The position numbers and the translations under genes are program-made. Shown here piece by piece: positions 1 through 59,368 of a stretch of 60,019 nucleotides of DNA (positions within the stretch are counted from its first letter, which is position 1; each line of letters begins with the position of its first letter). The notes beneath the pieces are model-generated. The model did not search any database and was not told the DNA's origin. It saw nothing but the letters and a program-made list of their open reading frames with translations. Origin of the DNA: Patescibacteria group bacterium (GTDB lineage Bacteria > Patescibacteriota > Minisyncoccia > Moranbacterales > DUUL01); assembly GCA_034658815.1 (NCBI GenBank), contig JAYEFY010000048.1, positions 1 through 60,019 on the forward strand, written 5' to 3'.

Positions 1-81
1 TTGCTGTAGATCATTAGTCTGACCAATATAAAATTTGTCGTATTTTTTATTGTACGCAATATAAACAAAAAGGTTTTGCAT
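1..81 (-). CDS. Minimal GIY-YIG nuclease, second tandem copy (only the 5' part is in the window)
   Basis: Bases 1-127 are identical to 333-459 (332-bp offset); ATG at 81 starts MQNLFVYIAYNKKYDKFYIGQTNDLQQ and the ORF runs off the window edge. Confidence 0.85.
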   Translation of the reverse strand, partial: MQNLFVYIAYNKKYDKFYIGQTNDLQQ

Positions 82-85
82 AATG

Positions 86-155
86 TGGGCGCTGAGAGAT
101 TCGAACTCCCGACCTACTGGGTGTAAATCCCGAGTACTCGGGACTCTAACCAACT
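86..155 (-). pseudogene. tRNA-Val-derived fragment lacking the first ~12 nt, with CGACTGG replaced by the perfect palindrome TCCCGAGTACTCGGGA (128-143)
   Basis: Direct comparison with the intact tRNA at 418-491. Confidence 0.85.
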
Positions 156-161
156 TGAACA

Positions 162-413
162 TTACATATTACAGAGTTTCCTATAAAACTGTTTCGATTT
201 TTGTTTTTTAAGAAACCTTTCTCTTCTTACAGTCTCTGAACGTGAGAAAAAACTTTCATAATACAAAATTTTCCATCCACCAGTATATTTTTTTGTGTAA
301 ACAGAAAAACCAGAACAATGTTCCAGTTCTCTTTGCTGTAGATCATTAGTCTGACCAATATAAAATTTGTCGTATTTTTTATTGTACGCAATATAAACAA
401 AAAGGTTTTGCAT
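162..413 (-). CDS. Minimal GIY-YIG nuclease (UPF0213/Slx1-like), 83 aa
   Basis: FVYIAY...FYIGQT motif pair, R (QQRE) and H (EH), conserved helix E (RRERFLK); true start is ATG at 413, directly after the tRNA 3' end. Confidence 0.88.
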   Translation of the reverse strand: MQNLFVYIAYNKKYDKFYIGQTNDLQQRELEHCSGFSVYTKKYTGGWKILYYESFFSRSETVRRERFLKKQKSKQFYRKLCNM

Positions 414-417
414 AATG

Positions 418-491
418 TGGGCGCTGAGAGATTCGAACTCCCGACCTACTGGGTGTAAACCAGTCGCTCTAACCAACTGAGCCAAGCGCCC
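418..491 (-). tRNA. tRNA-Val(TAC)
   Basis: GGGCGCT/AGCGCCC acceptor stem, ACTGG-TTTACAC-CCAGT anticodon arm, GTTCGAATC T loop; CCA not encoded. Confidence 0.96.
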
Positions 492-734
492 TTGTAACAA
501 GAAAAACATAAAATGACCTACTGGGTGTAAATCCCGAGTCCTTGGGACTCTAACCAACTGAGCCAAGCGCCCTTGTAACAAGAAAAACATAAAATGACCT
601 ACTGGGTGTAAATCCCGAGTCCTCGGGACTCTAACCAACTGAGCCAAGCGCCCTTGTAACAAGAAAAACATAAAATGACCTACTGGGTGTAAATCCCGAG
701 TCCTCGGGACTCTAACCAACTGAGCCAAGCGCCC
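492..734 (-). repeat. Three tandem 81-bp units: tRNA-Val 5' half with a palindrome replacing the 5' anticodon-stem strand, plus a 17-nt AT-rich spacer
   Basis: Units 492-572, 573-653 and 654-734 are identical except one base (543); palindromes at 532-547, 613-628 and 694-709. Confidence 0.95.
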
Positions 735-758
735 TTGTAATGGGGCTTTGACCATACG

Positions 759-842
759 TGCCCCGAGAGAGACTCGAACTCTCATGCGCATAAAGCGCCA
801 TGGCCCTCAACCATGTGTGTATACCGATTCCACCATCGGGGC
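759..842 (-). tRNA. tRNA-Leu(GAG)
   Basis: GCCCCGA acceptor, CATGG-TTGAGGG-CCATG anticodon arm, long variable arm, GTTCGAGTC T loop. Confidence 0.95.
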
Positions 843-994
843 GATGTTTTTAAATGCCAAATCTTTATCAATGTTACCGTGTTTTTATATTACGGTCAAG
901 ATTTGAATTTTCACACACAGTAGTTGGGCGCTGTTGCATTGTTTTTTCGTGAGCAATTCTATAGATGAAGAATAAAAAACGAAAATTCAAAATA

Positions 995-1022
995 ACAAAA
1001 AGCGCCGATAAGCGCCTTTTGT
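995..1022 (-). terminator. Probable intrinsic terminator after rplS
   Basis: On the minus strand AAAAGGCGC-TTATCG-GCGCTTTTT, about 30 nt after the stop. Confidence 0.5.
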
Positions 1023-1052
1023 GTGCATACTAAGCAAACAAACTGCTTCGTT

Positions 1053-1538
1053 TTAATTTTTCGCTTCAGTCTTTTCTCTCTTTCTTAGTGTCTTTTTCTT
1101 GGATTCCTTTTTTTCGTTTTTCTTTTCCTTCGGCTCTCGTTCTTTCTCTGCTTCTTGCAGTTCTTTGATAATTGTCTTTTCGCTTTCGGAAAGATCTCTC
1201 ACTTTCATCTTTGCGGCTTTACCGGTTCTGTCTCTCATATAATACAGTTTTGCTCTGCGTACTTTACTGCGTCGAAGAAGATCGATTTTTTCAATTGATG
1301 GAAGATAAATTGGAAAAGTTGCTTCTACTCCGATTCCTTGAGATTCACGCCGAACAGTGATAGTTGGTGAAGAACTTTGTTTTCCCTTGATTGCGATAAT
1401 TAGACCTTTAAAAACTTGAATACGCTCTCGGTTGCCTTCTTTAATATGTTTGTGGACGCGAACAATGTCACCGACTTTAAACGACGGAAATTTCTTTGTT
1501 TGCAGTGATTTATTAAATTGCACAACTTTTTCATTCAT
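1053..1538 (-). CDS. rplS: 50S ribosomal protein L19 with a charged C-terminal extension
   Basis: [39 protein letters not shown] motifs. Confidence 0.96.
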
Positions 1539-1562
1539 ATCGGAAAAGTTACTTCATTATAT

Positions 1563-1584
1563 AGATTGTTTCCAAACTAGCTTT
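1563..1584 (+). repeat. Solo terminus of the GGGACTGTTTCCAAACTA MITE-like family
   Basis: AGATTGTTTCCAAACTAGCTTT matches the terminus of the 28084-28171 element. Confidence 0.5.
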
Positions 1585-1854
1585 GTCAATAAAAATCAGG
1601 AAACTTCATTCATCATTACTGTTCGTGAACGGCATGATTCTGAGCATTCAGGATAAGATTTTTGATGGGAATTGACTCAAGAACAGTTTCTTACCAAGCT
1701 TTTCCAAGCATATCCCACTTTCTTAAATAGAGCAAGGTTATTATTGCCTAGATTTAACGGTTCGCTCAGATTGATTGCTATCTCACTATTTAATTTTTCT
1801 CGAAAATATGATATTATTCAGATAGCATCATCGTGAAAAACAAATCTTATAAAT

Positions 1855-2220
1855 ATGACATATTCCAATAACAAAGTATTTTTTGTTCTGTTCGTGTTAT
1901 TTTTTTTATGCGGAACCATTTGTTCAAGCGGACAAATAGCTGCGCAAGCCCAAGATCAAAGAAACGATCAGTCTTTAGAGATCTCAGACGAGAGAATTAC
2001 AAATGACAATGAAGCGAAAGCAATGGCCAGTGCGAATGACAATGTGAATTCGGGAGAAACAAAAGTTGCTGAGTTATCCAAAATACAACCACAAATATTT
2101 GCCGATGCTGAAGCGCCGCCCGCGGGACCTGCGGAATCGGTTGTTATTATTGCGGCAATTACATTCGGGTTTTTAGGCGCCGTGATCTTTCTGGCGCTTG
2201 TTGTTCATAATCGATATTGA
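1855..2220 (+). CDS. Hypothetical exported protein with an N-terminal signal and a C-terminal TM anchor
   Basis: Hydrophobic N-terminus, polar middle, PPAGP followed by a hydrophobic helix. Confidence 0.65.
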   Translation: MTYSNNKVFFVLFVLFFLCGTICSSGQIAAQAQDQRNDQSLEISDERITNDNEAKAMASANDNVNSGETKVAELSKIQPQIFADAEAPPAGPAESVVIIAAITFGFLGAVIFLALVVHNRY

Positions 2221-2229
2221 AACGAAGCT

Positions 2230-3189
2230 TTATTTTAGATGTTTAGAAAATTTTAGTGGAATAGGGCAGGAAAATTCATATTTTTTCATGTTGCTATATT
2301 TAAAGGAAAGATGTGAAGCATGTAAGAAAAGACGGCTAAACGGCGCGTTTTTTTGTTTAGTGTTCTTAGTAAAGTACAATTTGTCGCCGACAACAGGATG
2401 TCCAATTGATTGAAGATGAATGCGAATCTGATGTTTTCTTCCTGTTTTTAACTCAATTTCAACGAGACTGATCTTCCCGTTGTCTTTCAAAACTGAAAAT
2501 GAAGTAAGAGCGTTTTTTGGATTAATAAGTTTTTCAGCACGCGCACTAGTTGACTGGCAAGTAGGCCGTGCTTTTGATCTGCCAATAAACGTTGAGATAT
2601 CTCCCTTTTTTTGTTTAAATGTTCCCCAACAAAAAACATGATACTTTTTTCTAATGGTTCTTTCTTTAAACTGTTTTTTGAAAAATTCGAAACTTTTTTG
2701 CTTAAGAGCGATAATGAGCAAACCGGACGCATCTTTATCGAGTCGGTGGACAATTCCCGGGCGTAGCGGGTCTTCCCCGACTGACGTAATTTGCGGAAAA
2801 TGCGCGAGTGCCCAATTCACAACGGTGTTACGATGTTCATGGTCGCTCGGATGAACTGAAATTCCGGATGGTTTGTTAATAATGAGAAAATCATCATGCT
2901 TGGCAATAATAGAAATTGGCAAGTCAGCCTGTGGTTCGATGCAGAGAGGAGCTGTTTTTTGAAAAATTCGAATCTTTACTAGGTCTCCTTTTTTAATGAG
3001 ATAGCGAGGTTTTATCCTCTTTTTGTTAACTGTAATAAACCCGTTTTTAATATGCTTCTGGATCAAAGTTCTGGGAATATCGGGGAATTTGGAAGCAATA
3101 AAAACATCCAATCGCGTGTCGGTTGAATCTTGAACAATTAAAACTTCTTTAAAAATAGATTGATTCTTTTCGGAAGTTATTTTTGGCAT
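2230..3189 (-). CDS. RluA/RluD-family pseudouridine synthase
   Basis: S4-like N-terminus (RLDVFIA), NKPSGISVHP, catalytic HRLDKDASG, TGRKHQIRIH. Confidence 0.93.
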   Translation of the reverse strand: MPKITSEKNQSIFKEVLIVQDSTDTRLDVFIASKFPDIPRTLIQKHIKNGFITVNKKRIKPRYLIKKGDLVKIRIFQKTAPLCIEPQADLPISIIAKHDDFLIINKPSGISVHPSDHEHRNTVVNWALAHFPQITSVGEDPLRPGIVHRLDKDASGLLIIALKQKSFEFFKKQFKERTIRKKYHVFCWGTFKQKKGDISTFIGRSKARPTCQSTSARAEKLINPKNALTSFSVLKDNGKISLVEIELKTGRKHQIRIHLQSIGHPVVGDKLYFTKNTKQKNAPFSRLFLHASHLSFKYSNMKKYEFSCPIPLKFSKHLK

Positions 3190-3198
3190 AACGCAACA

Positions 3199-3876
3199 CT
3201 ATTTTGCGATCTTTAAAATATATTTGTTAAGGCTGTTTTCAAGACTGTCCTTATATCTGTGCATGAAAAAGAAAAACACAAGAGCCACAACAACGAAAAG
3301 AGCAACTGTCTGGGTTTTCGATATGGCCATGCCGTTGCCGATAACATTGGCAATAAAACAACCTGGAATTCTACCCAGCACGGCTGTAAGCATCAAAGTT
3401 CTGATCTTGATCTTTGTTAGTCCTGAAATGAAACATATTGCGTCATCAGGGAACATTGGAACTAAGAAAACAATGAAGATGATTGAGATTTTTCTGCTGT
3501 TTGAAATATGATGAAAGCGATCCAATGTTTTTTTTGGAACAATTTTCTCAACAAAAGGTTGCCCGAGTGTTCTTGAAAGATAGAAAGCAATAAACGAGCC
3601 AATCGACAGTCCGATTATTGAATAGACTGTTCCCATATAAGGGCCAAAAAAATACCCGCTGATAAAACCGGTTATTTGGCCGGGAATGGGGACAAATATG
3701 ACTTGAAGAGTTTGAAGAAGAATGATGAGAAATGGGCCAAGTGCTCCCGATTGCGTGATGAATAGTTTGATTTGCGAGAAATCATTAAGAGGGAAGTAGC
3801 GACTGAGAACGATTGCAAGAATAAGCAGGATGATGGTAAAGATGAGAACGCTGGCAAGAACTATTTTTTTAACCAT
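3199..3876 (-). CDS. TVP38/TMEM64 (VTT/DedA-like) membrane protein
   Basis: IPGQITGFISGYFFGP and VPMFPDDAICFISGL motifs, multiple TM helices. Confidence 0.85.
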   Translation of the reverse strand: MVKKIVLASVLIFTIILLILAIVLSRYFPLNDFSQIKLFITQSGALGPFLIILLQTLQVIFVPIPGQITGFISGYFFGPYMGTVYSIIGLSIGSFIAFYLSRTLGQPFVEKIVPKKTLDRFHHISNSRKISIIFIVFLVPMFPDDAICFISGLTKIKIRTLMLTAVLGRIPGCFIANVIGNGMAISKTQTVALFVVVALVFFFFMHRYKDSLENSLNKYILKIAK

Positions 3877-3978
3877 GAACGTTGTTTTGAATTACATAAT
3901 GACTGTTCCTAGGCACCGTTTCGCAACGAAGGTTCAGAACTTTCAACAGAAAGAGTGTTTGGGAACAATCTCTTATTG

Positions 3979-4063
3979 TGCCGGAGAGAGGACTCGAACC
4001 TCCAAGGGATAAAATCCCACTAGCTCCTAAGGCTAGCGTGTCTGCCAATTTCACCACTCCGGC
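3979..4063 (-). tRNA. tRNA-Leu(TAG)
   Basis: GCCGGAG acceptor, CTAGC-CTTAGGA-GCTAG anticodon arm, variable arm. Confidence 0.95.
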
Positions 4064-4156
4064 GGAAAGTTTTGTCCGCTGTTTCAGCGGGTACTCGCCG
4101 GTATGGCGAGCGAACTCCAATATTTACAACTCCGGTTTTTGTGACCCCGTAAGAAA

Positions 4157-4244
<88 letters not shown>

Positions 4245-4480
4245 ATTTTTCTACGGAGCAAACCGATGCATTCCTCTGCCCGTTTTTGGTTAGTGACTAC
4301 TTTCTCCCAAAGCGGATAAATTGCCACGCCTTCAAAATCGGTCTTACTCATAGAATTTTAACAATCCCAATGCTTTTTGTAAACTTTTTCGCTGGAAGAG
4401 CCGAATAATGCCAAATTTACAAAAAACTGGCCAAAAAAGACCAGCATTTGCTTGGCGCACTGACTTGTCGTTCAGGTTAT

Positions 4481-4978
4481 CTACTTCAGTAAAAATCTCT
4501 TGCTTTTACTCAAATTAATAAAGTCGTCAGCCGCTTCAATAAGCATATGCGAACAGCTTTCTTGGAATGCCAATACTTCAACGCGAACGCCTTTATTAAA
4601 CTGCAGATACTTCACCAATTGTTCATAATCGCCATCTCCACTGACCAGTACGATCACATCAAGATTATTAGCGAGTTTTATAGCGTCTATCGCGATGCCG
4701 ACATCCCAATCGCCTTTTTTCATTCCTCCTTTGAATATTTGAAGCTCCTTTGTTTTGACTTCATAGCCAAGATTTTCGAGAGAAGTGAAAAATTTTTCTT
4801 CAAGCCCTTCTTCTGTACTGATGCAGTAAGCGATTGCGCGAATGAGCTGTCTTCCCGAAACGGCTTCTTTTAAAATTTCTTTGAAGTTTACTTTTTTACC
4901 AAAGAGTACTCGCCCGCTGTAGTACATATTTTGGACATCAACCAGTACCCCGACTCTTTGTTGTGAAAATTTTGCCAT
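4481..4978 (-). CDS. NYN domain (LabA/DUF88) protein
   Basis: LVDVQNMY, KKGDWDVGIAID, LVSGDGDY acidic motifs. Confidence 0.9.
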   Translation of the reverse strand: MAKFSQQRVGVLVDVQNMYYSGRVLFGKKVNFKEILKEAVSGRQLIRAIAYCISTEEGLEEKFFTSLENLGYEVKTKELQIFKGGMKKGDWDVGIAIDAIKLANNLDVIVLVSGDGDYEQLVKYLQFNKGVRVEVLAFQESCSHMLIEAADDFINLSKSKRFLLK

Positions 4979-5152
4979 TGTGTTAATTAGAAATTATTGT
5001 TACACAATTGTTTTTATCAATGCTATTTAATATCAAAGGAGTAACTTCAATATATATTGGCAGCTCCGCCTCTTAATTAAAAAACATTTAAGAAAAAAAG
5101 CATTACGGCTGCCTATCTGCTGTAATATCGTAAACAACCGAAAAAATCCGAA

Positions 5153-5422
5153 TCAGCCTTTTAAACCAAGTTTCTTTATTACTTTTTTATATTTAGCTTC
5201 GTTAGTGGTTTTAAGGTATCTCATAAGTTTTTTTCGTTGTGAGACCATGCCCAGAAGTCCTCGCCGGGAATGCTTATCTTTCGGGTTTTTTTTCAAATGC
5301 AGAACAAGTTGCTTAATTTTAGCCGTGAAAAGAGCGATTTGATACTCCGAAGAGCCGGAATCCTTTTCATGCCGTTTAAAATTTTTAGTCGCGCTTGTTT
5401 TCTGCCGTAATGTGAGACTCAT
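5153..5422 (-). CDS. rpsO: 30S ribosomal protein S15
   Basis: DSGSSEYQIALFT, HLKKNPKDKHSRRGLL; start placed at ATG 5422. Confidence 0.96.
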   Translation of the reverse strand: MSLTLRQKTSATKNFKRHEKDSGSSEYQIALFTAKIKQLVLHLKKNPKDKHSRRGLLGMVSQRKKLMRYLKTTNEAKYKKVIKKLGLKG

Positions 5423-5512
5423 ACATTTCTGAGCCGTCCTGTCGGAGCGCTGTTTGTTTGATACAACAAACAAACAGCCAGATTTGAGATGCAATCCAAC
5501 TTCGAACAGGAA
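5423..5512 (-). promoter_or_regulatory. Structured 5' leader of rpsO (candidate S15 autoregulatory element)
   Basis: Perfect 12-bp hairpin 5449-5478 enclosed by an imperfect outer stem (5438-5444 with 5503-5510). Confidence 0.45.
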
Positions 5513-5534
5513 AGCGTGTTATTTTTATGCCTTT

Positions 5535-5562
5535 ATTATAGCAGAAAATGATACTTTTGCAA
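5535..5562 (-). promoter_or_regulatory. Sigma70-type promoter for rpsO
   Basis: TTGCAA-16 nt-TATAAT with an extended -10 TG. Confidence 0.6.
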
Positions 5563-5778
5563 TAGGCGGTCGTCAAAGATGTGTTTTACTTGCAGGTTTT
5601 TTGTTGAAACAAGCAAGCTTGGGCCAACGTAGCTTATAAAATTATTAGAAATTGATTATTAAAAAGTTCATAAATATGTACCCGCGTACTTATAAAATAT
5701 TTGTCTTTACAAATATTTTTGAGAAAATATTCATATTAGGGTAGTATGTATGAATAATATGCTTGATGAATACTTTTT

Positions 5779-8040
5779 GTGTCAAAAATACTGGATTATC
5801 TGAATAAAAAACAAAAAGAGGCGGTTGTTCAAACCGATGGGTCTGTTTTGATCTTGGCGGGAGCCGGATCGGGCAAGACACGGGCGTTAACTTATCGTGT
5901 CGCGTATCTTATCAAAGAAAAAAAAGTGCTGCCGCGCCATATATTGGCAATGACATTTACCAACAAAGCGGCGGGAGAAATGCTTGAACGTGTCAAGCAT
6001 TTACTCGGTTTACCTTCGGCAGTTTCAAGGTATTCTCCAAATTTGCCGCACATTGGCACATTTCATTCAATTTGCGCGCGCATTTTACGCAAAGAGATCG
6101 AGAAGATGGGTTACGAAAGAAATTTTGCCATATATGACAGCAGTGATCAGCTGGCTGTGATGAAGCGGGTGATAAAAAAATTGGAAATATCACAAGAGCA
6201 GTTTAAACCGCAGATTATTCTCGGCGCAATTTCAAATGCCAAAAACAAGTTGGTCGGATCGCGTAAATTTAAACAGCAAGTCGGAAGTTTTTTTGAGGAA
6301 CAAGTTTCAAAATGTTATACGAAATACCAAAAAGAACTTCGTGAGGCCAGCGCGCTGGATTTTGATGATATTCTTATGTTAATTGTGGAACTGTTTCAGA
6401 AGCACCCGGATATTCTTGAGAATTATCAGAACTTATTCAAGTATATTATGGTTGACGAATATCAGGACACGAATCATGCCCAGTATGTTTTTCTCAAAAT
6501 GTTGGCGGAGAAGAGCCGCAATATTTGCGTGGTTGGGGATGATTGGCAGTCGATCTACGGCTGGAGAGGAGCTGACGTGCAAAATATTCTGAATTTTGAA
6601 AAAGATTATCCGGAAGCCAAAGTTATTCTTTTGGAACAAAATTATCGAAGCACCCAGAATGTTCTTGACGCCGCGCACTGCGTTATTTCAAAGAATACCA
6701 ATCGCAAAGACAAAAAATTGTGGACTAAAAATGATTCCGGAAGCCCGATCACTCTTTTTGAAGCGCGGGACGAAAAAGACGAGTCGGACTTTGTCGTTAA
6801 TGAAATAAATCTGTTGCGGAAAGAAATGAAGCTAAAACTTGATGATTTTGCTGTTTTGTATCGCACTAACGCTCAATCGCGCGCGCTTGAGGAGGCATTC
6901 ATGAAAGTGGGCATTCCGTATAAAATTATCGGAGGATTCAAATTCTATGAGCGCAAGGAAGTAAAAGACATTCTGGCTTATTTATTGTTTGCGCGCAATC
7001 CCAATGATAAGGTGAGTTTTGAGCGAGTAGTGAATATTCCGGCGCGCGGAATCGGAAGAAAAACAATTGATAAGATAATGGGCGTCTGCGAGCAAAACAA
7101 AATTGATATTCTTGAGGCGATCAAGTCCATTGTATCTGTGCCGGCTGAAGATCCGAAAGAACGGGTCATTGTCTTGTCAAAGATCAAAACGCTTGAGAAA
7201 TTTCATGTTATGTTGCGAAATTTTCGACAGACGCTGAAAAATATGCCGGTTTCAAAGCTCATTACTAAAATTTACAAAGAATCCGGATATGAACAAATGC
7301 TTTCAAAGAACGGGGAGGAAGGCGCGGTACGGCAAGAAAATATTCAGGAGCTTTTAACAGTTGCTCAAGATTATGATGGGCAAGAGAACGGAGCAGACCT
7401 TTTTCTGGAGGAGGTCGCTCTTGTATCCCAGACCGACAATGATCTGGATGCTCAAAATCTTGTTCCGCTTATGACATTGCACAGCGCTAAAGGCCTTGAA
7501 TACGAAACCGTTTTTATTGTCGGGATGGAGGAAGGTTTATTGCCGCATTCAAGAGCCATACTCAATGAAAAGGAAATGGAAGAAGAGCGGCGCTTGTGCT
7601 ATGTCGGTATCACGCGCGCGAAACAAAAAGCTCATTTGATCTATACGGCAACCCGAACTATTTACGGTTCAACGCAAATATCGATCCGTTCGCGTTTTGT
7701 CGATGAAATTGACAATCATCTGTTTGAACAGCGCTATTCACAGAATGAGAGTGATGAATTTTTTACCGATTCTTTTTCGAATGATGGAAATAAGAGAAAG
7801 TCGGAGCGGCAAGGGTTCATTAAAAGAACTGAAGATGTTGAGCGAATTATCGATCTTGGTAAAAAAGGCGAGAGGAAGCAACGTGATGCCAAATTCAAAG
7901 ATGGTGATAGGGTAAAACACAAAGTTTTTGGCGAAGGCATTGTTGTTTCGCAGGACGCGAAGGCGATAAATGTTGTTTTCCCCATAATCGGACTGAAGAA
8001 GTTTGCCAAAGGAGTCGCGCCCTTAGAAAAAGCGCAGTAA
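5779..8040 (+). CDS. pcrA: ATP-dependent DNA helicase PcrA/UvrD
   Basis: LAGAGSGKT, TFTNKAA, VDEYQDTN, VGDDWQSIYGWRGA, LEQNYRS, TLHSAKGLE, EEERRLCYVGITRA, C-terminal Tudor-like domain; GTG start. Confidence 0.95.
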   Translation: MSKILDYLNKKQKEAVVQTDGSVLILAGAGSGKTRALTYRVAYLIKEKKVLPRHILAMTFTNKAAGEMLERVKHLLGLPSAVSRYSPNLPHIGTFHSICARILRKEIEKMGYERNFAIYDSSDQLAVMKRVIKKLEISQEQFKPQIILGAISNAKNKLVGSRKFKQQVGSFFEEQVSKCYTKYQKELREASALDFDDILMLIVELFQKHPDILENYQNLFKYIMVDEYQDTNHAQYVFLKMLAEKSRNICVVGDDWQSIYGWRGADVQNILNFEKDYPEAKVILLEQNYRSTQNVLDAAHCVISKNTNRKDKKLWTKNDSGSPITLFEARDEKDESDFVVNEINLLRKEMKLKLDDFAVLYRTNAQSRALEEAFMKVGIPYKIIGGFKFYERKEVKDILAYLLFARNPNDKVSFERVVNIPARGIGRKTIDKIMGVCEQNKIDILEAIKSIVSVPAEDPKERVIVLSKIKTLEKFHVMLRNFRQTLKNMPVSKLITKIYKESGYEQMLSKNGEEGAVRQENIQELLTVAQDYDGQENGADLFLEEVALVSQTDNDLDAQNLVPLMTLHSAKGLEYETVFIVGMEEGLLPHSRAILNEKEMEEERRLCYVGITRAKQKAHLIYTATRTIYGSTQISIRSRFVDEIDNHLFEQRYSQNESDEFFTDSFSNDGNKRKSERQGFIKRTEDVERIIDLGKKGERKQRDAKFKDGDRVKHKVFGEGIVVSQDAKAINVVFPIIGLKKFAKGVAPLEKAQ

Positions 8041-8076
8041 GTCGCATAAAATGCCGAAAAGAATTAAGTAAAGTTA

Positions 8077-8112
8077 ACAATTTTTGGCAGGAGTTGGTTT
8101 AGTAACAGTCCC
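8077..8112 (-). repeat. Solo terminus of the MITE-like family
   Basis: ACAATTTTTGGCAGGAGTTGGTTTAGTAACAGTCCC resembles 21381-21414 and the reverse complement of 16936-16972. Confidence 0.6.
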
Positions 8113-8200
8113 AATAGTTCTTTCAAATTCTGTCTTAAAAGTTTACGGCATTCGTTCGTAAGTTTCGTCTAAATAATTTCCGAAGAGGAGGGGAGAAAAA

Positions 8201-8689
8201 ATGTTTGACACTTTCATAGCGCTGGGCACAATCGCTGTTTGCCTGATTGGCACGCAACTGATCAAAAGACGATTATCTGACGCCAGTAATGGATCAAAAG
8301 AATTTATTCTTAAGCACAGGTTGTTGCCTCATCCAAATTCGATCAGTTTTACAGGTTTGCTGTGGGCATTATTTTCGATGGCGCTGTACTGGTTTATGTA
8401 TGCCTGGAAGTCGTCGGGCAATTTCTGCGTTCTTTCTCGCCTGCTTAACCGAATATTCGATTTGGAATTATCTATGGCAGCGAATTATTTCGGGAAAATA
8501 AAAACAGTCTGTGTCCACAGCTTGATTGTTTTTTGCGCTTTGGAAATTTCTAATGTTATCGCTTCCGGTTTTTTAACAGCTATCACTTTCTTGGCGGTAT
8601 GCTCGATCACGTTTAAATTCATCAGAATTGGATCTTTGAGGAATTTTATCTCGAATAGGAGGAAATTCAGCCGGTGCAAACTTTTTTAG
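8201..8689 (+). CDS. Hypothetical membrane protein, possibly chimeric or truncated
   Basis: Strong SD (AGGAGG); the N-terminal half is hydrophobic with HPNSISFTG, while the C-terminal half overlaps a protein-like antisense frame. Confidence 0.4.
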   Translation: MFDTFIALGTIAVCLIGTQLIKRRLSDASNGSKEFILKHRLLPHPNSISFTGLLWALFSMALYWFMYAWKSSGNFCVLSRLLNRIFDLELSMAANYFGKIKTVCVHSLIVFCALEISNVIASGFLTAITFLAVCSITFKFIRIGSLRNFISNRRKFSRCKLF

Positions 8690-8715
8690 TCAAAATATTA
8701 CAAGATTAATCCGCA

Positions 8716-8739
8716 GGGATCACGAAAATTCGTGATCCC
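8716..8739. terminator. Hairpin/terminator
   Basis: GGGATCACGAA-AA-TTCGTGATCCC perfect 11-bp stem. Confidence 0.6.
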
Positions 8740-8802
8740 TAATGTTTTTTTATAAACAATAGCCGCCTTGTTATCAGTATTCAGCGTGTTATAATTTCAC
8801 TA

Positions 8803-9747
8803 ATGAAAAAGGTTTTATGCTTGGCAATTTTACTCTCAGGGATTTTTGTTAGTTGGAAAGCTGGCTCCGTTTGGTTTTTTAAAGAAAGGACGCTGGATTT
8901 TTCAGGCGATAAATTAATAACAGTCAATGATAACGGCTTTCAATATCAGATAACGGCCAGCGCGAAAACAGTTGGCCGATTACTGGATGATGTTGGTATA
9001 ACTGTGGCTGATTGCGACAGAATATATCCGGATCAAGAAATAAATCTTTTTCCAGGAATGATTATTTCACTTCACCGTGCCATACCAATTAAAATTTATG
9101 TTGATGGCGAAACTCGTGCGTTGAATTCTTTTTCTTCTACAGTTGAAAAAGCTCTTCATGAGGCTGAGGTTGAACTAAGTCATCTTGATCAAGTAAGCCC
9201 TTCTCGAGTATCTGGTATTGAGAAAGATTTGGAAATTGTCGTTACCAGGATAAATAAGGAACAGACAGTTGCTAAAGAGCCGATTGCGTTTAAAATAATT
9301 GAGAAAAAAAATCCAAAGCTGAAATGGAGAAAAAAGAAAATCCAACAAGAAGGCGTTGAAGGTGCTAAGGAAGTAGAATATGAAATAACGTACAAAAACG
9401 GAAAACAGATCTCTAAAGAAAAATTATCATCAAAAATTACTGAAGAGCCGGTTACTGAAATAGTTTCCATTGGCACAAAAGTCAAAGTTGGAAAAACAAA
9501 GATCGGAGTCGCAAGCTGGTACGCGCATACCGGAGCAATGGCGTGCGCTTCCAGAATGTTTTCCAAAGGAACATGGTTGCGGGTAACCAACAGGGAAAAC
9601 GGGAAACAGGTTTTTGTGGTGGTGAATGACTATGGTCCGCAGCGCGGTACGGGAAAAATGATCGATCTGGATAAAATAGCATTCAAAAAACTTGCATCAT
9701 CAAGCAAAGGCGTCATCGAAGTAAAAGTAGAAGAAATAATAGACTGA
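8803..9747 (+). CDS. Exported DUF348 (ubiquitin-like) + G5 + RlpA-like DPBB protein (YabE-like cell-wall lytic enzyme)
   Basis: Signal peptide; TVGRLLDDVGI and TVEKALHEAEV repeats; G5 (QEGVEGAKEVEY...EIVSIGTK); GVASWY...VNDYGP...IDL. Confidence 0.82.
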   Translation: MKKVLCLAILLSGIFVSWKAGSVWFFKERTLDFSGDKLITVNDNGFQYQITASAKTVGRLLDDVGITVADCDRIYPDQEINLFPGMIISLHRAIPIKIYVDGETRALNSFSSTVEKALHEAEVELSHLDQVSPSRVSGIEKDLEIVVTRINKEQTVAKEPIAFKIIEKKNPKLKWRKKKIQQEGVEGAKEVEYEITYKNGKQISKEKLSSKITEEPVTEIVSIGTKVKVGKTKIGVASWYAHTGAMACASRMFSKGTWLRVTNRENGKQVFVVVNDYGPQRGTGKMIDLDKIAFKKLASSSKGVIEVKVEEIID

Positions 9748-18670: not shown

Positions 18671-18784
18671 GGGATTATTTCCAAACTAGTTTTCTGCCTC
18701 GCCGAACTTACCCGTACCGAACGGTACGTTCGGACGAGCAGGCAGGCGTTGGCAAAAACTTGGAGTTAGTTTGGCGACAGTCCC
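18671..18784 (+). mobile_element. MITE-like element with an internal REP-like palindrome
   Basis: Termini GGGATTATTTCCAAACTAG / GTTAGTTTGGCGACAGTCCC; internal CCCGTACCGAACGGTACGTTCGGACG (18711-18736). Confidence 0.7.
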
Positions 18785-21200: not shown

Positions 21201-21415
21201 GAGAACTGTTTCTAAACCAGCTTCTTACCTTGCCCTGCCTGCCCTGCCTGTCTGCTAGCAGGCAGGTGGCAGGCGTTAGTCCCGAGTACTCGGAACTAAA
21301 TTTTTGGTTATGTTTCAGCATAAATAATATTTTCAAAGCTGTTGATCGCGCTGTTTGCAAACAGTAATAATAAATAGGCAACAATTTTTAGCAGGAGTTA
21401 GTTTGGAATAGTCCT
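21201..21415. mobile_element. Expanded MITE-like element carrying CCTGCC-type and TCCCGAGTACTCGG-type palindromes
   Basis: Left GAGAACTGTTTCTAAACCAGCTTC, right GCAGGAGTTAGTTTGGAATAGTCC; internal palindromes at 21229-21276 and 21280-21295. Confidence 0.65.
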
Positions 21416-25694: not shown

Positions 25695-25791
25695 TAAGCA
25701 AAAACGCGGTGAAGAACCTTTTGGTTTAATTGAAGTTTATATCGTTTTATGTGTAAGAAATTAGAGCGTTATTTACAATATTGCCGCTTTT

Positions 25792-25947
25792 TTGTCATCC
25801 CGAGTCCCGAGTGCTCGGGATTGAGGGATCACTTCGCGTAAATAAGTTCACAGTCAAGGGATTCCTGCCTACCCTGCCTACCCTGCCTGCCGGCAGGCAG
25901 GGTAGGCAGGGTAGGCTTCTCCCGCTAAAGCGGGATCAGAATGACAA
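25792..25947. repeat. Composite nested REP-like element
   Basis: Outer TTGTCAT...ATGACAA; inner TCCCGAGTGCTCGGGA (25805-25820), perfect 25-bp-arm palindrome (25867-25916) and TCCCGCTAAAGCGGGA (25920-25935). Confidence 0.8.
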
Positions 25948-26234
25948 GGAGAGAAGTGCAAATAACGCTGTTGGATCTTATTTATGTTATATGCGGCATG
26001 CTCATCTTGCCGTTTTTTTGTTGATTTAACTCAAATCAAACCTGATCTCAATGCTTCGTCTTTATAGCAGCTACAATAAAATGACTTATTTGTAAGTATT
26101 ATATTGTATAAAACATATTTTTACCTTACACTTGACTAGGTGTGGATGAATGTGTCATCTTAATATATTATAATATTGTCTTATAAAACACTGGGAAACA
26201 TTGCAACTTTCAATGTTGATAATTGTACACTGTT

Positions 26235-58222: not shown

Positions 58223-58320
58223 ACAAAAAGGGAAATAGCGCAAACAAGCTATGGCCCCTTTTTTCTTTTGTTATAAGCAAAAAGCTGAAAGTCCAAACGG
58301 ACGAGTAGGCTTTTATCTTT
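58223..58320. repeat. Direct repeat copy B
   Basis: ACAAAAAGGGAAATAGCGCAAACAAGCTAT...TAAGCAAAAAGCTGAAAGTCCAAACGGAC...TAGGCTTTTAT. Confidence 0.8.
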
Positions 58321-58328
58321 TATTTATG

Positions 58329-58474
58329 TATGCTGGGGAGGAGGGATTTTCGCCTCGTCTTCACTAAAGTTCAGACTTCGTTGTCCAGGGCAGCGCTGAA
58401 AGCTGTTCGCTTCCAGCGACACTCGCTTATCTCACTTTGTTCGATGCTCGCTTCTGCCCGTTCGAATCCCTCTC
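58329..58474 (-). repeat. Duplicated tRNA-Gln 3' end plus an inverted T-arm copy
   Basis: 58329-58348 equals 58521-58540; GTTCGAATCCCTC at 58460-58472 is inverted relative to the tRNA T arm. Confidence 0.75.
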
Positions 58475-58524
58475 TCAAAACACACAAACAAAAAACGGAA
58501 CAAGCCTTTTTTCATTTGTGTATG

Positions 58525-58596
58525 CTGGGGAGGAGGGATTCGAACCCCCGAATCACGGGACCAGAACCCGTTGCCTTACCGCTTGGCTACTCCCCA
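58525..58596 (-). tRNA. tRNA-Gln(CTG)
   Basis: TGGGGAG/CTCCCCA acceptor, ACGGG-TTCTGGT-CCCGT anticodon arm, GTTCGAATC T loop. Confidence 0.96.
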
Positions 58597-58745
58597 AGAA
58601 ATATTTTGTAAAAAACTTTGTCCCGTTTCAATCTTGACCACTCTTTTTATCCCATCCAAGCGGTCAGCTTGCCCGCCCGAACGTACCATTCGGTACGGGC
58701 GAGCCCGCCCGTCCGAAGCTTTAACGCAGGCGGGGCTACTCCCCA
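58562..58745 (-). repeat. 184-bp direct repeat, copy 1 (tRNA-Gln 5' half, upstream DNA, and a REP-interrupted tRNA 5' tip)
   Basis: Near-identical to 59097-59280 (535-bp offset). Confidence 0.9.
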
Positions 58746-59002
58746 ATGTTATTTTGTGTAAATAACTCCTTTAGTTGTTGGCGTAAAAATCTTTTTCCTT
58801 CAGTAGTTTTCAGATATCGTTCTCTTCGTTCAGCATCTTGCGATAATAAATATGCTTCGTAATGAATAAGCTTAACAGGTAAACGCTTACTTGTGAACTT
58901 TGATTTTCCAAGTTTATGTTCCTCAACTCTTCTTTTTAAGTTGCTCGTGCACCCAGTATAAATCTGCAAATTATTTAAAAGTAAAATATAAACGTAATGC
59001 AT
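58736..59002 (-). CDS. Minimal GIY-YIG nuclease, 88 aa
   Basis: YVYILL...IYTGCT, RRVEEH, RLPVKLIHYEAY, AERRERYLKT; stop codon supplied by the tRNA-derived TGGGGAGTAG. Confidence 0.9.
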   Translation of the reverse strand: MHYVYILLLNNLQIYTGCTSNLKRRVEEHKLGKSKFTSKRLPVKLIHYEAYLLSQDAERRERYLKTTEGKRFLRQQLKELFTQNNIGE

Positions 59003-59059
59003 TTTGGAATATTTGTATTTAATACCTACAGAAATTTATTGCACTACCGTAGGAACCAT

Positions 59060-59095
59060 CATGTCATTCGACATGATGCCATGTCGAATGACATG
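59060..59095. repeat. Perfect 16-bp-arm inverted repeat whose arms are themselves hairpins
   Basis: CATGTCATTCGACATG-ATGC-CATGTCGAATGACATG. Confidence 0.9.
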
Positions 59096-59096
59096 G

Positions 59097-59280
59097 CAGA
59101 ACCCGTTGCCTTACCGCTTGGCTACTCCCCAAGAAATATTTTGTAAAAAATCTTATCTCGTTTCAATCTTGACCACTCTTTTTATCCCATCCAAGCGGTC
59201 AGCTTGCCCGCCCGAACGTACTATTCGGTACGGGCGGGTCTGCCCGTCCGAAGCTTTAGCGCAGGCGGGGCTACTCCCCA
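59097..59280 (-). repeat. 184-bp direct repeat, copy 2; its tRNA half ends exactly after the anticodon
   Basis: TGGGGAGTAGCCAAGCGGTAAGGCAACGGGTTCTG, then the 59060-59095 palindrome. Confidence 0.9.
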
Positions 59281-59368
59281 AGATTATATCATTCCAAGTT
59301 TGTCGAGGTTCAATCATTTGACGGGGTAAAAATTGCTTCGTGTAGATATAGAAAGTATTTCAGTGCCA

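Follow-up and report, generated by a model that had tools for sequence, protein, structure and literature searches.

SegB, a free-standing GIY-YIG homing endonuclease encoded in the tRNA gene cluster of T-even phages, possesses a C-terminal DNA-binding domain and belongs to the homing-endonuclease/UvrC branch of its superfamily. The enzyme cuts inside tRNA genes at the motif RAWTSGAAC, which falls in the T-loop region, and SegB and a phage recombinase are both required for a ladder-like tandem amplification of tRNA-Tyr and segB in which truncated copies arise (PMC13096335). The locus considered here is chromosomal. It lies at the start of a 60,019-nt window (the whole stretch of DNA analyzed, contig JAYEFY010000048.1 of a Patescibacteria group bacterium), is read 5′ to 3′ on the minus strand, and comprises an intact tRNA-Val(TAC) gene, three tandem 81-bp units upstream of it (492–734) made of tRNA-Val fragments interrupted by a short palindrome, and, directly downstream, a gene for an 83-amino-acid (aa) GIY-YIG protein.

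With SegB the locus shares a GIY-YIG gene residing among tRNA genes, and the T loop, the region in which SegB cuts, is also a replacement site in four related loci (L002, L026, L032, and L078; related loci carry L numbers throughout). SegB differs in being phage-encoded and in having a C-terminal extension, truncation of which removes its toxicity (PMC13096335), whereas the window protein is 83 aa long and of the Slx1/UPF0213 type, is encoded on a chromosome, and has almost no counterpart in phage collections. Beside nucleases of the window type stand palindromes that take the place of tRNA loops and are specific to a nuclease clade, and nothing comparable appears in the accessible text of the SegB paper (PMC13096335). 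Free-standing homing endonucleases of the Seg/Mob kind resemble the present case in that the gene sits between conserved genes and its arrangement is polymorphic among relatives, but the window protein has no separate DNA-binding domain and departs from them on that count. Judged from the sequence, the replacement of tRNA nucleotides by a palindrome is a candidate immunity change in the homing sense.

By sequence profile the closest family is UPF0213/COG2827 (structures 1ywl and 1zg2), with which the window protein shares the minimal single-domain size, and the superfamily survey in PMC1564403 makes no mention of a link between UPF0213 and tRNA genes, pseudo-tRNAs, or palindromes. Integrative elements likewise leave partial copies beside an intact tRNA gene, the product of a mobile element that must spare the tRNA; unlike them, the element here has no integrase, a cargo of only ~250 bp, and fragments that include 5′ halves and internal cores, broken by a palindrome, often in tandem, and identical to the live gene. 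In the type III system ToxIN, short tandem repeats likewise precede the gene of a small nuclease and are transcribed together with it, but in the present locus the repeats are tRNA-derived, an intact tRNA and no terminator precedes the gene, the protein belongs to a DNase family, and in related loci the unit is often single or downstream. The GC clusters and double-hairpin elements of fungal mitochondria and the repetitive extragenic palindromic (REP) sequences of bacteria are short GC-rich palindromes scattered through AT-rich DNA, often near tRNA or homing-endonuclease genes; this is a resemblance only, and unlike those sequences the palindromes here occupy defined tRNA positions and covary in type with the clade of the adjacent nuclease. 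Full-text searches, covering journals other than subscription-only titles, returned no account of an association between GIY-YIG genes, tRNAs, pseudo-tRNAs, and palindromes. The ingredients are known, since phages have GIY-YIG homing enzymes at their tRNA genes, mobile elements leave tRNA fragments, and GC palindromes are familiar, and what is apparently undescribed is their combination: chromosomal Slx1-like mini nucleases in the tRNA operons of many phyla, accompanied by pseudo-tRNAs with clade-specific palindromes, often in tandem.

The interpretation favored here, with somewhat better than even confidence, is that the 81-bp units are by-products and cis-acting parts of a selfish nuclease element resident in a tRNA operon, and not independent RNA genes. 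The balance of evidence leans slightly toward an element with three parts: a gene for a GIY-YIG protein of ~83 aa and Slx1/UPF0213 type right after an intact tRNA gene, that tRNA gene itself, and at least one partial tRNA copy. With the same modest preference, these partial copies are taken to carry, where the anticodon arm should be (elsewhere the D or the T loop), a short GC-rich palindrome whose type depends on the nuclease clade.

Anatomy of the repeat units

Tandem Repeats Finder delimits an array at 467–740 with a period of 81, 3.4 copies, 99% matches, and zero indels, and find_repeats recovers the same array; its pseudo-tRNA units (734..492) are situated between an intact tRNA-Leu(GAG) and the intact tRNA-Val(TAC), which occupies 417..491 (ARAGORN; Rfam 72.6 bits, full cloverleaf). 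With tRNA-Val nucleotides (nt) numbered as by ARAGORN, each unit consists of GGGCGCTTGGCTCAGTTGGTTAGAG (nt 1–25), the palindrome TCCCGAGGACTCGGGA, TTTACACCCAGTAGGTC (nt 33–49), and a 23-nt spacer, ATTTTATGTTTTTCTTGTTACAA, and both tRNA segments of unit 1 are 100% identical to the intact gene. Unit 1 (654..734, palindrome 709..694) is the most distant from the intact gene, followed by unit 2 (573..653, palindrome 628..613) and by unit 3 (492..572), which adjoins it and whose palindrome (547..532) carries one substitution, reading TCCCAAGGACTCGGGA on the minus strand. The hexamer TTACAA, the first six bases of the repeat segment, stands before every tRNA-Val 5′ end, and an extra copy at 735..740 extends the array to position 740.

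At the site of the units' 16-nt palindrome the intact gene carries CGACTGG, and the change in the units is therefore a replacement of 7 nt by 16 nt, with no target duplication. The same substitution point recurs in a 3′-type pseudo-tRNA-Val at 155..86, 6 nt past the GIY-YIG stop codon, which is composed of nt 14–25, TCCCGAGTACTCGGGA (143..128), and nt 33–75. The palindromes differ at their centers, reading on the plus strand TCCCGAGTACTCGGGA at 128–143, TCCCGAGTCCTCGGGA at 613–628 and 694–709, and TCCCGAGTCCTTGGGA, with one extra change, at 532–547. An earlier note, made from the sequence without database searches, had described three tandemly amplified 81-bp tRNA-fragment repeats, a replacement in place of an insertion, a junction shared with the 86–155 copy, diverging palindrome centers, and a GIY-YIG gene close by, and every one of these factual statements holds when checked with Tandem Repeats Finder, ARAGORN, alignment, and Pfam. 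The array is 99% identical and probably derives from a metagenome assembly, so its copy number may err, and the unit itself is secure. Across the window the palindrome pattern has six matches compared with 0.04 expected, a count reached by none of 100 shuffles; four of the six lie inside pseudo-tRNA-Val and two outside (21280 and 25805).

Neither ARAGORN nor Rfam matches a cloverleaf in 492–740, even at E ≤ 10, and the units are missing the T arm and the 3′ acceptor strand. They are 5′ copies of the tRNA-Val gene beside them that no longer function, and the tRNA-Val(TAC) at 417..491 is the functional copy, the source and partner of all the fragments. A sigma-70-like promoter match upstream of tRNA-Leu (871..899; TTGACC, 17 nt, TAACAT; 9 of 12 positions, a consensus match only) is likely the start of the repeat-containing tRNA operon, and the units are probably transcribed within it. 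They match no known RNA family in Rfam, and at a second locus in the window, around tRNA-Gln, the real tRNAs alone were matched. The RNA folding suggested by the earlier note offers its guide, decoy, or attenuator RNAs little encouragement: the palindrome hairpin aside, a unit folds like shuffled sequence (z = −1.05), and a stable unit RNA structure was dropped as a candidate on this result. A terminator or attenuator was dropped as well, no terminator-like site being called in 160–760 and the palindrome hairpin being trailed by just three T. To judge from these sequence features, such RNA roles are less likely.

Several other origins were tried and set aside. The 23-nt spacer was compared with the start of the nuclease gene as a possible remnant of its 5′ end, and the match was not significant (269 of 2000 shuffles equal its score); such a remnant is unambiguous in L125–127. 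The palindrome might have arisen from the local anticodon stem, and its CGAG/CTCG does fit most Patescibacteria tRNA-Val genes; the stems of the window tRNA-Val and of tRNA-Arg mismatch, and the likeness is consequently regarded as a coincidence. A split or permuted tRNA was rejected with an intact tRNA-Val(TAC) adjoining, and with both fragment types sharing a self-complementary palindrome and both lacking nt 26–32. Duplication of an integrase attachment site was likewise rejected, as there is no integrase among the open reading frames (ORFs) of 1–9000 and the fragments present are 5′ halves that lie no farther than 250 bp from the tRNA. A CRISPR-like reading of the array was set aside because of its anatomy.

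Concerted evolution in syntenic relatives

Three relatives (L001, L002, and L004) possess the gene order rplS, tRNA-Leu(GAG), tRNA-Val(TAC), GIY-YIG, tRNA-Phe, tRNA-Gly, and each has a pseudo-tRNA-Val bearing TCCCGAGNNCTCGGGA right after ...AGAG. The pseudo-copy lies 3′ of the nuclease gene in L001 and L002, like the window copy at 155..86, and this architecture of a GIY-YIG gene followed by a 3′-type pseudo-tRNA is also present in L005 and L025. L004 has a 5′-type pseudo-copy before the nuclease gene and the intact tRNA after it, and in L002 a second copy of the palindrome replaces the T loop. Three arrangements thus occur in syntenic loci (tRNA-nuclease-pseudo, pseudo-nuclease-tRNA, and pseudo-tRNA-nuclease), the pseudo-tRNA being found upstream or downstream of the nuclease gene and its extent varying freely among relatives, with nt 11–24, the palindrome, and nt 32–43 as the core common to the 5′ and 3′ types.

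The intact tRNA-Val genes share a mean of 83% identity across loci (66–87% between the window gene and the others), and their anticodon stems read ACTGG/CCAGT in the window gene and either TCTCG/CGAGA or CCTCG/CGAGG in the others. The tRNA-derived segments of the pseudo-copies, by comparison, are 100% identical to the intact gene of their own genome, and the palindrome is constant throughout. Because the pseudo-copies remain identical to their own intact gene while the intact genes diverge, they must be continually regenerated or homogenized. The single nick-and-repair event at this locus that the earlier note had envisaged does not accommodate a palindrome found also in syntenic relatives with other anticodon stems, in other tRNAs, and in other phyla.

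Palindrome type follows the nuclease clade

When the nucleases were clustered and the neighboring palindromes listed, palindrome type tracked the nuclease clade and not the tRNA or the host. The clade of the window nuclease is associated with TCCCGA(G)..(C)TCGGGA, a large clade beside tRNA-Arg, Asn, Gln, Pro, Tyr, and Ser with TCCGCC-NNN-GGCGGA, a subclade beside tRNA-Arg(CCG) with GGTCGCCGCGGCGACC, and a further clade with (C)TCCGCCAGCTGGCGGA(G). The same nuclease clade adjoins different tRNAs, and one contig, L074, encodes two nucleases of two clades, each with the palindrome type of its clade after it. Nuclease genes of the window's clade share only ~65% DNA identity, and yet 22 of 29 palindrome instances have flawless outer 6+6 bases around a free center; since the arms are kept while the genes and the center vary, the arms are under selection as sequence. 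Such conservation is more readily reconciled with a symmetric protein site, or with a templated copy, than with neutral debris.

The subclade palindrome GGTCGCCGCGGCGACC (L131, L132, L137, and L142) includes CCGCGG, which is also the site of Eco29kI. The same CCGCGG is the site of Cfr42I, a GIY-YIG restriction enzyme (PMC2241918). By analogy, this provides a lead that bare GIY-YIG domains may be able to read such palindromes.

Distribution across tRNAs and phyla

When one genome per species was searched for AGAG followed by the palindrome, 63 loci emerged, compared with ~17 expected by a uniform-composition estimate. At least 20 of these have a full D arm upstream and the anticodon loop downstream, in tRNA-Val (TAC, GAC, and CAC), tRNA-Asn, and others. 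The hosts with a strict D arm are Patescibacteria, Gracilibacteria, Bacteroidota, Chlorobiota, Ignavibacteriota, and one Gammaproteobacteria metagenome-assembled genome (MAG), and MAGs of Calditrichaceae, KSB1, and Verrucomicrobia join them once looser contexts, with a partial D arm, are admitted. Of the loci found by this pattern, 15 have a GIY-YIG ORF next to the palindrome (two duplicates of L001 and L004 excluded).

A sample blind to the palindrome, 80 metagenome loci found by protein alone (narrower alignment A2), has a same-strand tRNA within 150 nt of the GIY-YIG ORF in 62 of 79 cases, representing 23 anticodon types; the tRNA is upstream only in 27 of the 62, downstream only in 28, and on both sides in 7. 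Alignment of the adjacent intact tRNA to its surroundings revealed 69 inserts between two pseudo-tRNA segments, most of which are short GC-rich TCC...GGA palindromes. Three regions receive the inserts: nt 13/14 to 17/18 in the D loop, nt 25/26 to 32–38 in the anticodon arm, and nt 57 to 63/64 in the T loop (this last loop is replaced in the four loci named at the outset). Examples include a tRNA-Arg of the form [1–25] + TCCGCCTGCGGCGGA + [38–77] and a tRNA-Asn of the form [1–24] + palindrome + [35–76]. In tRNA-Pro and tRNA-Gly a mini-hairpin substitutes for the entire anticodon arm. As the palindrome is found across relatives, tRNA species, and phyla, it is the hallmark of a class of element and not a local accident, and the three units of the window are one ordinary instance of this class.

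Full-length palindrome pseudo-tRNAs are miscalled by ARAGORN as an 83-nt Pro(cgg), an 80-nt Ala(tgc), and one tRNA of undetermined type (L069 429–511; L110 1736–1815; L125 1745–1824; L148 1737–1816; L079 1755–1840). Some nuclease ORFs run on into the pseudo-tRNA and acquire tails such as ...QLVRVPRSRD; the miscalls and these tails are both annotation pitfalls.

Tandem arrays and their dynamics

Tandem arrays of 5′-type pseudo-tRNAs upstream of the intact gene are also present in other loci, with periods of 80 bp in L010 (two units, tRNA-Lys, in the genome of L001 and with an identical palindrome, center included), 98 bp in L017 (three units), 74 bp in L022, 79 bp in L062, 104 bp in L065, 89 bp in L082, 83 bp in L093, and 100 bp in L131 and L137. 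The earlier note had regarded arrays in genomes devoid of such a nuclease as contrary to its proposal, and here the outcome is divided: tRNA-Asn and tRNA-Lys arrays with no nuclease gene in their 8-kb locus do exist, but the L010 genome encodes the matching nuclease elsewhere (L001).

Change by a single unit can be seen between near-identical contigs. Relative to L129, the three contigs L125–127 carry exactly one extra unit of 106 nt, both ends of which fall within the tRNA (alignment A3, columns 206–311); the order in L129 is tRNA-Arg, nuclease, pseudo-tRNA. The unit holds tRNA nt 38–77, the leader and ATG of the nuclease joined to the final ~15 nt of its gene, pseudo-tRNA nt 2–25, and the palindrome, a composition from which it is read as a duplicated [tRNA + nuclease] with the nuclease gene internally deleted. 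By analogy with L125–127, a similar history is proposed for the window array. Downstream in the window, the repeated segment is of the other type: positions 1–127 are 100% identical to 333–459, defining within 1–459 a 332-bp tandem repeat of the tRNA 3′ half and the nuclease gene. The second GIY-YIG copy in this repeat is cut by the window edge, leaving its 5′ part, the first 27 codons (1..81), and 27 of 27 residues are the same as in the first copy (tblastn).

A bare Slx1-like nuclease domain

The nuclease gene occupies 162..413 (83 aa and a stop codon), with its ATG (413) 3 nt past the tRNA-Val 3′ end. The protein matches Pfam PF01541 over residues 5–74 (E = 2e-12; 47.7 bits, cut-off 22.6), and Y7, Y18, G20, R28, H32, and E65 are invariant in an alignment of 14 sequences spanning distant clades (A1), which covers the catalytic Tyr, Tyr, Arg, and Glu positions of the superfamily. 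A profile of its close relatives, compared with the Protein Data Bank (PDB), finds the UPF0213 structures 1ywl (2.6e-7) and 1zg2 (7.6e-6) and SLX1 (4xlg, 0.002) as the closest solved structures, and neither I-TevI nor UvrC is matched in that search. As UPF0213 and SLX1 are nearest and there is no second domain beyond the catalytic match, the protein is a bare Slx1-like nuclease domain without a DNA-binding domain. A C-terminal Asn is typical of the UvrC/homing-endonuclease lineage (PMC1564403), and no invariant Asn is present in A1, an alignment based on sequence. The 2006 survey of the superfamily treats the prokaryotic Slx1-like group as vertically inherited, of unknown role, and probably repair-related, and records a fusion of GIY-YIG to the tRNA methyltransferase TrmH (PMC1564403).

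The nearest homologues are 59–69% identical and come from Patescibacteria; the exact sequence has no record in the look-up made, and NCBIfam gives a sub-threshold match alone, to the N-terminus of group I intron endonucleases. A phage origin was considered and rejected, with zero tblastn matches in 50,697 phage records and only three weak relatives in IMG/VR.

In the window's clade, the ATG lies 0–4 nt past the tRNA end in 14 of 28 tRNA-then-nuclease cases, among them the window (411–417), L001, L002, L045, L054, L066, L067, L073, L077, and L095. Because this leaves no space for a ribosome-binding site, the nuclease message may be nearly leaderless, released by tRNA 3′ processing. Bacteroidota relatives have a terminator-like hairpin and 33–52 nt between the tRNA and the nuclease gene.

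Other palindrome sites and neighboring features of the window

A second mini GIY-YIG gene (59002..58736, minus strand; 88 aa), 36% identical to the first, is situated amid tRNA-Gln debris, and this locus (58300–59300) has the architecture of the tRNA-Val locus with another palindrome, the window thereby repeating the two-clade pairing of L074. Segments of pseudo-tRNA-Gln corresponding to nt 1–12 lie at 59281..59269 and 58745..58734, a segment of nt 1–35 lies at 59131..59097 and is followed by a 41-nt palindrome (59096..59056), the intact tRNA-Gln is at 58596..58524, and a 3′ fragment is at 58348..58327. After each nt 1–12 segment comes a GC-rich direct repeat of ~135 nt (59268–59135 and 58733–58600, minus strand), which carries the upstream flank of tRNA-Gln and has no Rfam match; its upstream copy contains an 8-bp stem, CCCGCCCG/CGGGCGGG, and its downstream copy has the left arm GCTCGCCCG. 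The palindrome CGTACCGAACGGTACGTTCGG at 18713–18733 resembles the core of this repeat.

GC palindromes also form two intergenic clusters. The first (21230–21295) contains CCTGCC...GGCAGG and a degenerate TCCCGAGTACTCGGAA after GTTAG, and the second (25781–25950) contains TCCCGAGTGCTCGGGA, a perfect 50-nt palindrome (25867–25916), and TCCCGCTAAAGCGGGA. The CCTGCC...GGCAGG type replaces tRNA nt 1–9 in L035 and is found in the D loop of a pseudo-tRNA-Asn in L068. Both clusters may be graveyards of earlier pseudo-tRNA/nuclease sites.

The tRNA-Leu(GAG) that opens the operon (758..842, minus strand; ARAGORN; Rfam tRNA 50.9 bits) is syntenic in L001, L002, and L004; a whole-window Rfam run at the gathering threshold missed it and a 1-kb run found it, a filter effect of the tool in which the gene itself is sound. 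Just 5′ of the promoter match is the terminator-like hairpin of rplS (1022..995, minus strand). The ribosomal protein L19 encoded there (1053–1538, minus strand) has a Lys/Glu-rich C-terminal tail of ~45 residues, and the L19 ORFs of L002 and L004 are likewise long (169 and 157 aa).

Proposed mechanism and alternatives

The sequence comparisons show the anatomy of the units, the association of nuclease, tRNA, and pseudo-tRNA, the clade specificity of the palindromes, the concerted evolution of the copies, the recurrence of arrays, and the polymorphism by one unit. Under the selfish-element interpretation, the nuclease would break tRNA-gene DNA at or near the segments that encode loops, and the break would be repaired by homologous recombination with a palindrome-bearing copy on a sister or incoming chromosome, a copy that would itself be uncuttable, the palindrome marking it as a non-substrate. 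Conserved D-arm and T-arm sequences could serve as portable homology arms. Pairing in register would spread or maintain the element; out of register, a broken 5′ end (nt 1–24) would pair with an upstream pseudo-copy and add one [pseudo-tRNA + spacer] unit, so that repeated events would build a 5′-type array upstream, such as the three units of the window, and repeats of the 3′-type copy with the nuclease gene downstream, such as the 332-bp repeat. Repeated gene conversion would keep the tRNA-derived parts identical to the live gene, and selection would retain the palindrome arms as a cis site that would resist the nuclease, bind it as a dimer, or do both. The SegB-dependent amplification of tRNA-Tyr and segB is an experimental precedent for such array growth (PMC13096335), and the conservation of the catalytic residues is in keeping with an active nuclease.

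Several points weigh against this interpretation. The 83-aa protein, a predicted nuclease from its sequence, is without the separate DNA-binding domain of SegB or I-TevI and would be an unusual homing enzyme, and the 2006 survey regards the Slx1-like branch as vertically inherited repair enzymes (PMC1564403). In L022, L062, and L010 the 8-kb locus that contains the array is devoid of a nuclease gene, so that these arrays call for plain slippage or for a nuclease acting in trans; in the case of L010, the matching nuclease is encoded elsewhere in the genome. The intact host tRNA would stay cleavable, a tolerance that the model does not explain, immunity alone would not require the patch to be a conserved palindrome, the origin of the palindrome is unaccounted for, and metagenome assemblies may misreport copy number.

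A wider proposal, advanced tentatively and with distinctly less assurance, is that the mini GIY-YIG proteins of UPF0213/COG2827, for years a family with no assigned function, are the nucleases of a new class of mobile element resident in tRNA genes. Each would act as a dimer on its cognate TCC...GGA palindrome, hop between tRNA genes and phyla by means of D- and T-arm homology, and be expressed from a nearly leaderless message freed by tRNA 3′ processing, and the arrays would be cis sites and not debris.

Alternatively, the palindromes could themselves be mobile, similar to REP sequences or miniature inverted-repeat transposable elements, having been inserted by the GIY-YIG protein or a host factor into the hairpin loops of tRNA genes and tolerated only in redundant copies, with the tRNA duplication coming first. 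No bacterial GIY-YIG transposase is known. Copies outside a tRNA context do exist at 21280 and 25805, within clusters of other GC palindromes, and REP-like copies are found in a Chloroflexi MAG and in Bacteroidota, but the former are just two of the six copies in 60 kb, and the one at 21280 follows GTTAG, which resembles a decayed D arm. All three loop regions are hit and several different palindromes can occur in one pseudo-tRNA (L002, L035, L048, and L098), as would be expected of insertions, yet the events replace C...G segments of 3–17 nt and no clean insertion with a target duplication is seen. Conserved arms with a free center suit mobility, and the near-constant site after AGAG fits homology-guided copying equally. 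This alternative is considered unlikely.

It is also possible, and slightly less probable still, that the units act as RNA decoys or antitoxins in the manner of a type III system, in which unit RNAs with a hairpin-closed anticodon loop would neutralize or guide the nuclease and the array would set the dose, like the ToxI repeats that precede ToxN. The tandem repeats do share an operon with the small nuclease gene and lie upstream of it, but they are separated from that gene by an intact tRNA and not by a terminator, and among relatives the pseudo-tRNA is upstream or downstream and variable in extent. The nuclease gene is almost universally accompanied by a palindrome-bearing pseudo-tRNA, the swap is hairpin-for-hairpin in several tRNAs (the whole anticodon arm in Pro and Gly), and the 5′ and 3′ types share the core of nt 11–24, palindrome, and nt 32–43, all of which favors this alternative; nevertheless, the unit folds no better than shuffles, and the arms within a clade are fixed in sequence rather than covarying. 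The GIY-YIG–TrmH fusion on record is a further point in its favor (PMC1564403), whereas known GIY-YIG enzymes are DNases, and arrays occur with no nuclease gene in the 8-kb locus.

That the nuclease is a bystander to slippage or unequal crossover of a decaying tRNA duplicate, or to attachment-site debris, is very improbable: tandem repeats can expand by slippage unaided, tRNA fragments are common after element integration (PMC9897764), and some arrays have no nuclease gene in their 8-kb locus, but the presence of a same-strand tRNA no more than 150 nt away from 62 of the 79 nuclease genes, the tracking of nuclease clade by palindrome type, the same junction in different tRNAs and phyla, and fragments that include 5′ halves and internal cores, with no integrase nearby, in place of the 3′ ends typical of attachment sites, all speak against it.

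If the interpretation of the units as parts of a selfish nuclease element is correct, a very widespread orphan protein family would gain a role, that of a selfish tRNA-operon nuclease, and a recurrent class of anomalous tRNA calls and false ORFs would be accounted for in the annotation of metagenomes. The strict pairing of clade and palindrome would constitute a set of natural small nuclease/site pairs that is directly testable, and the amplification of tRNA segments by a phage GIY-YIG enzyme would extend to the chromosomes of many bacterial phyla.

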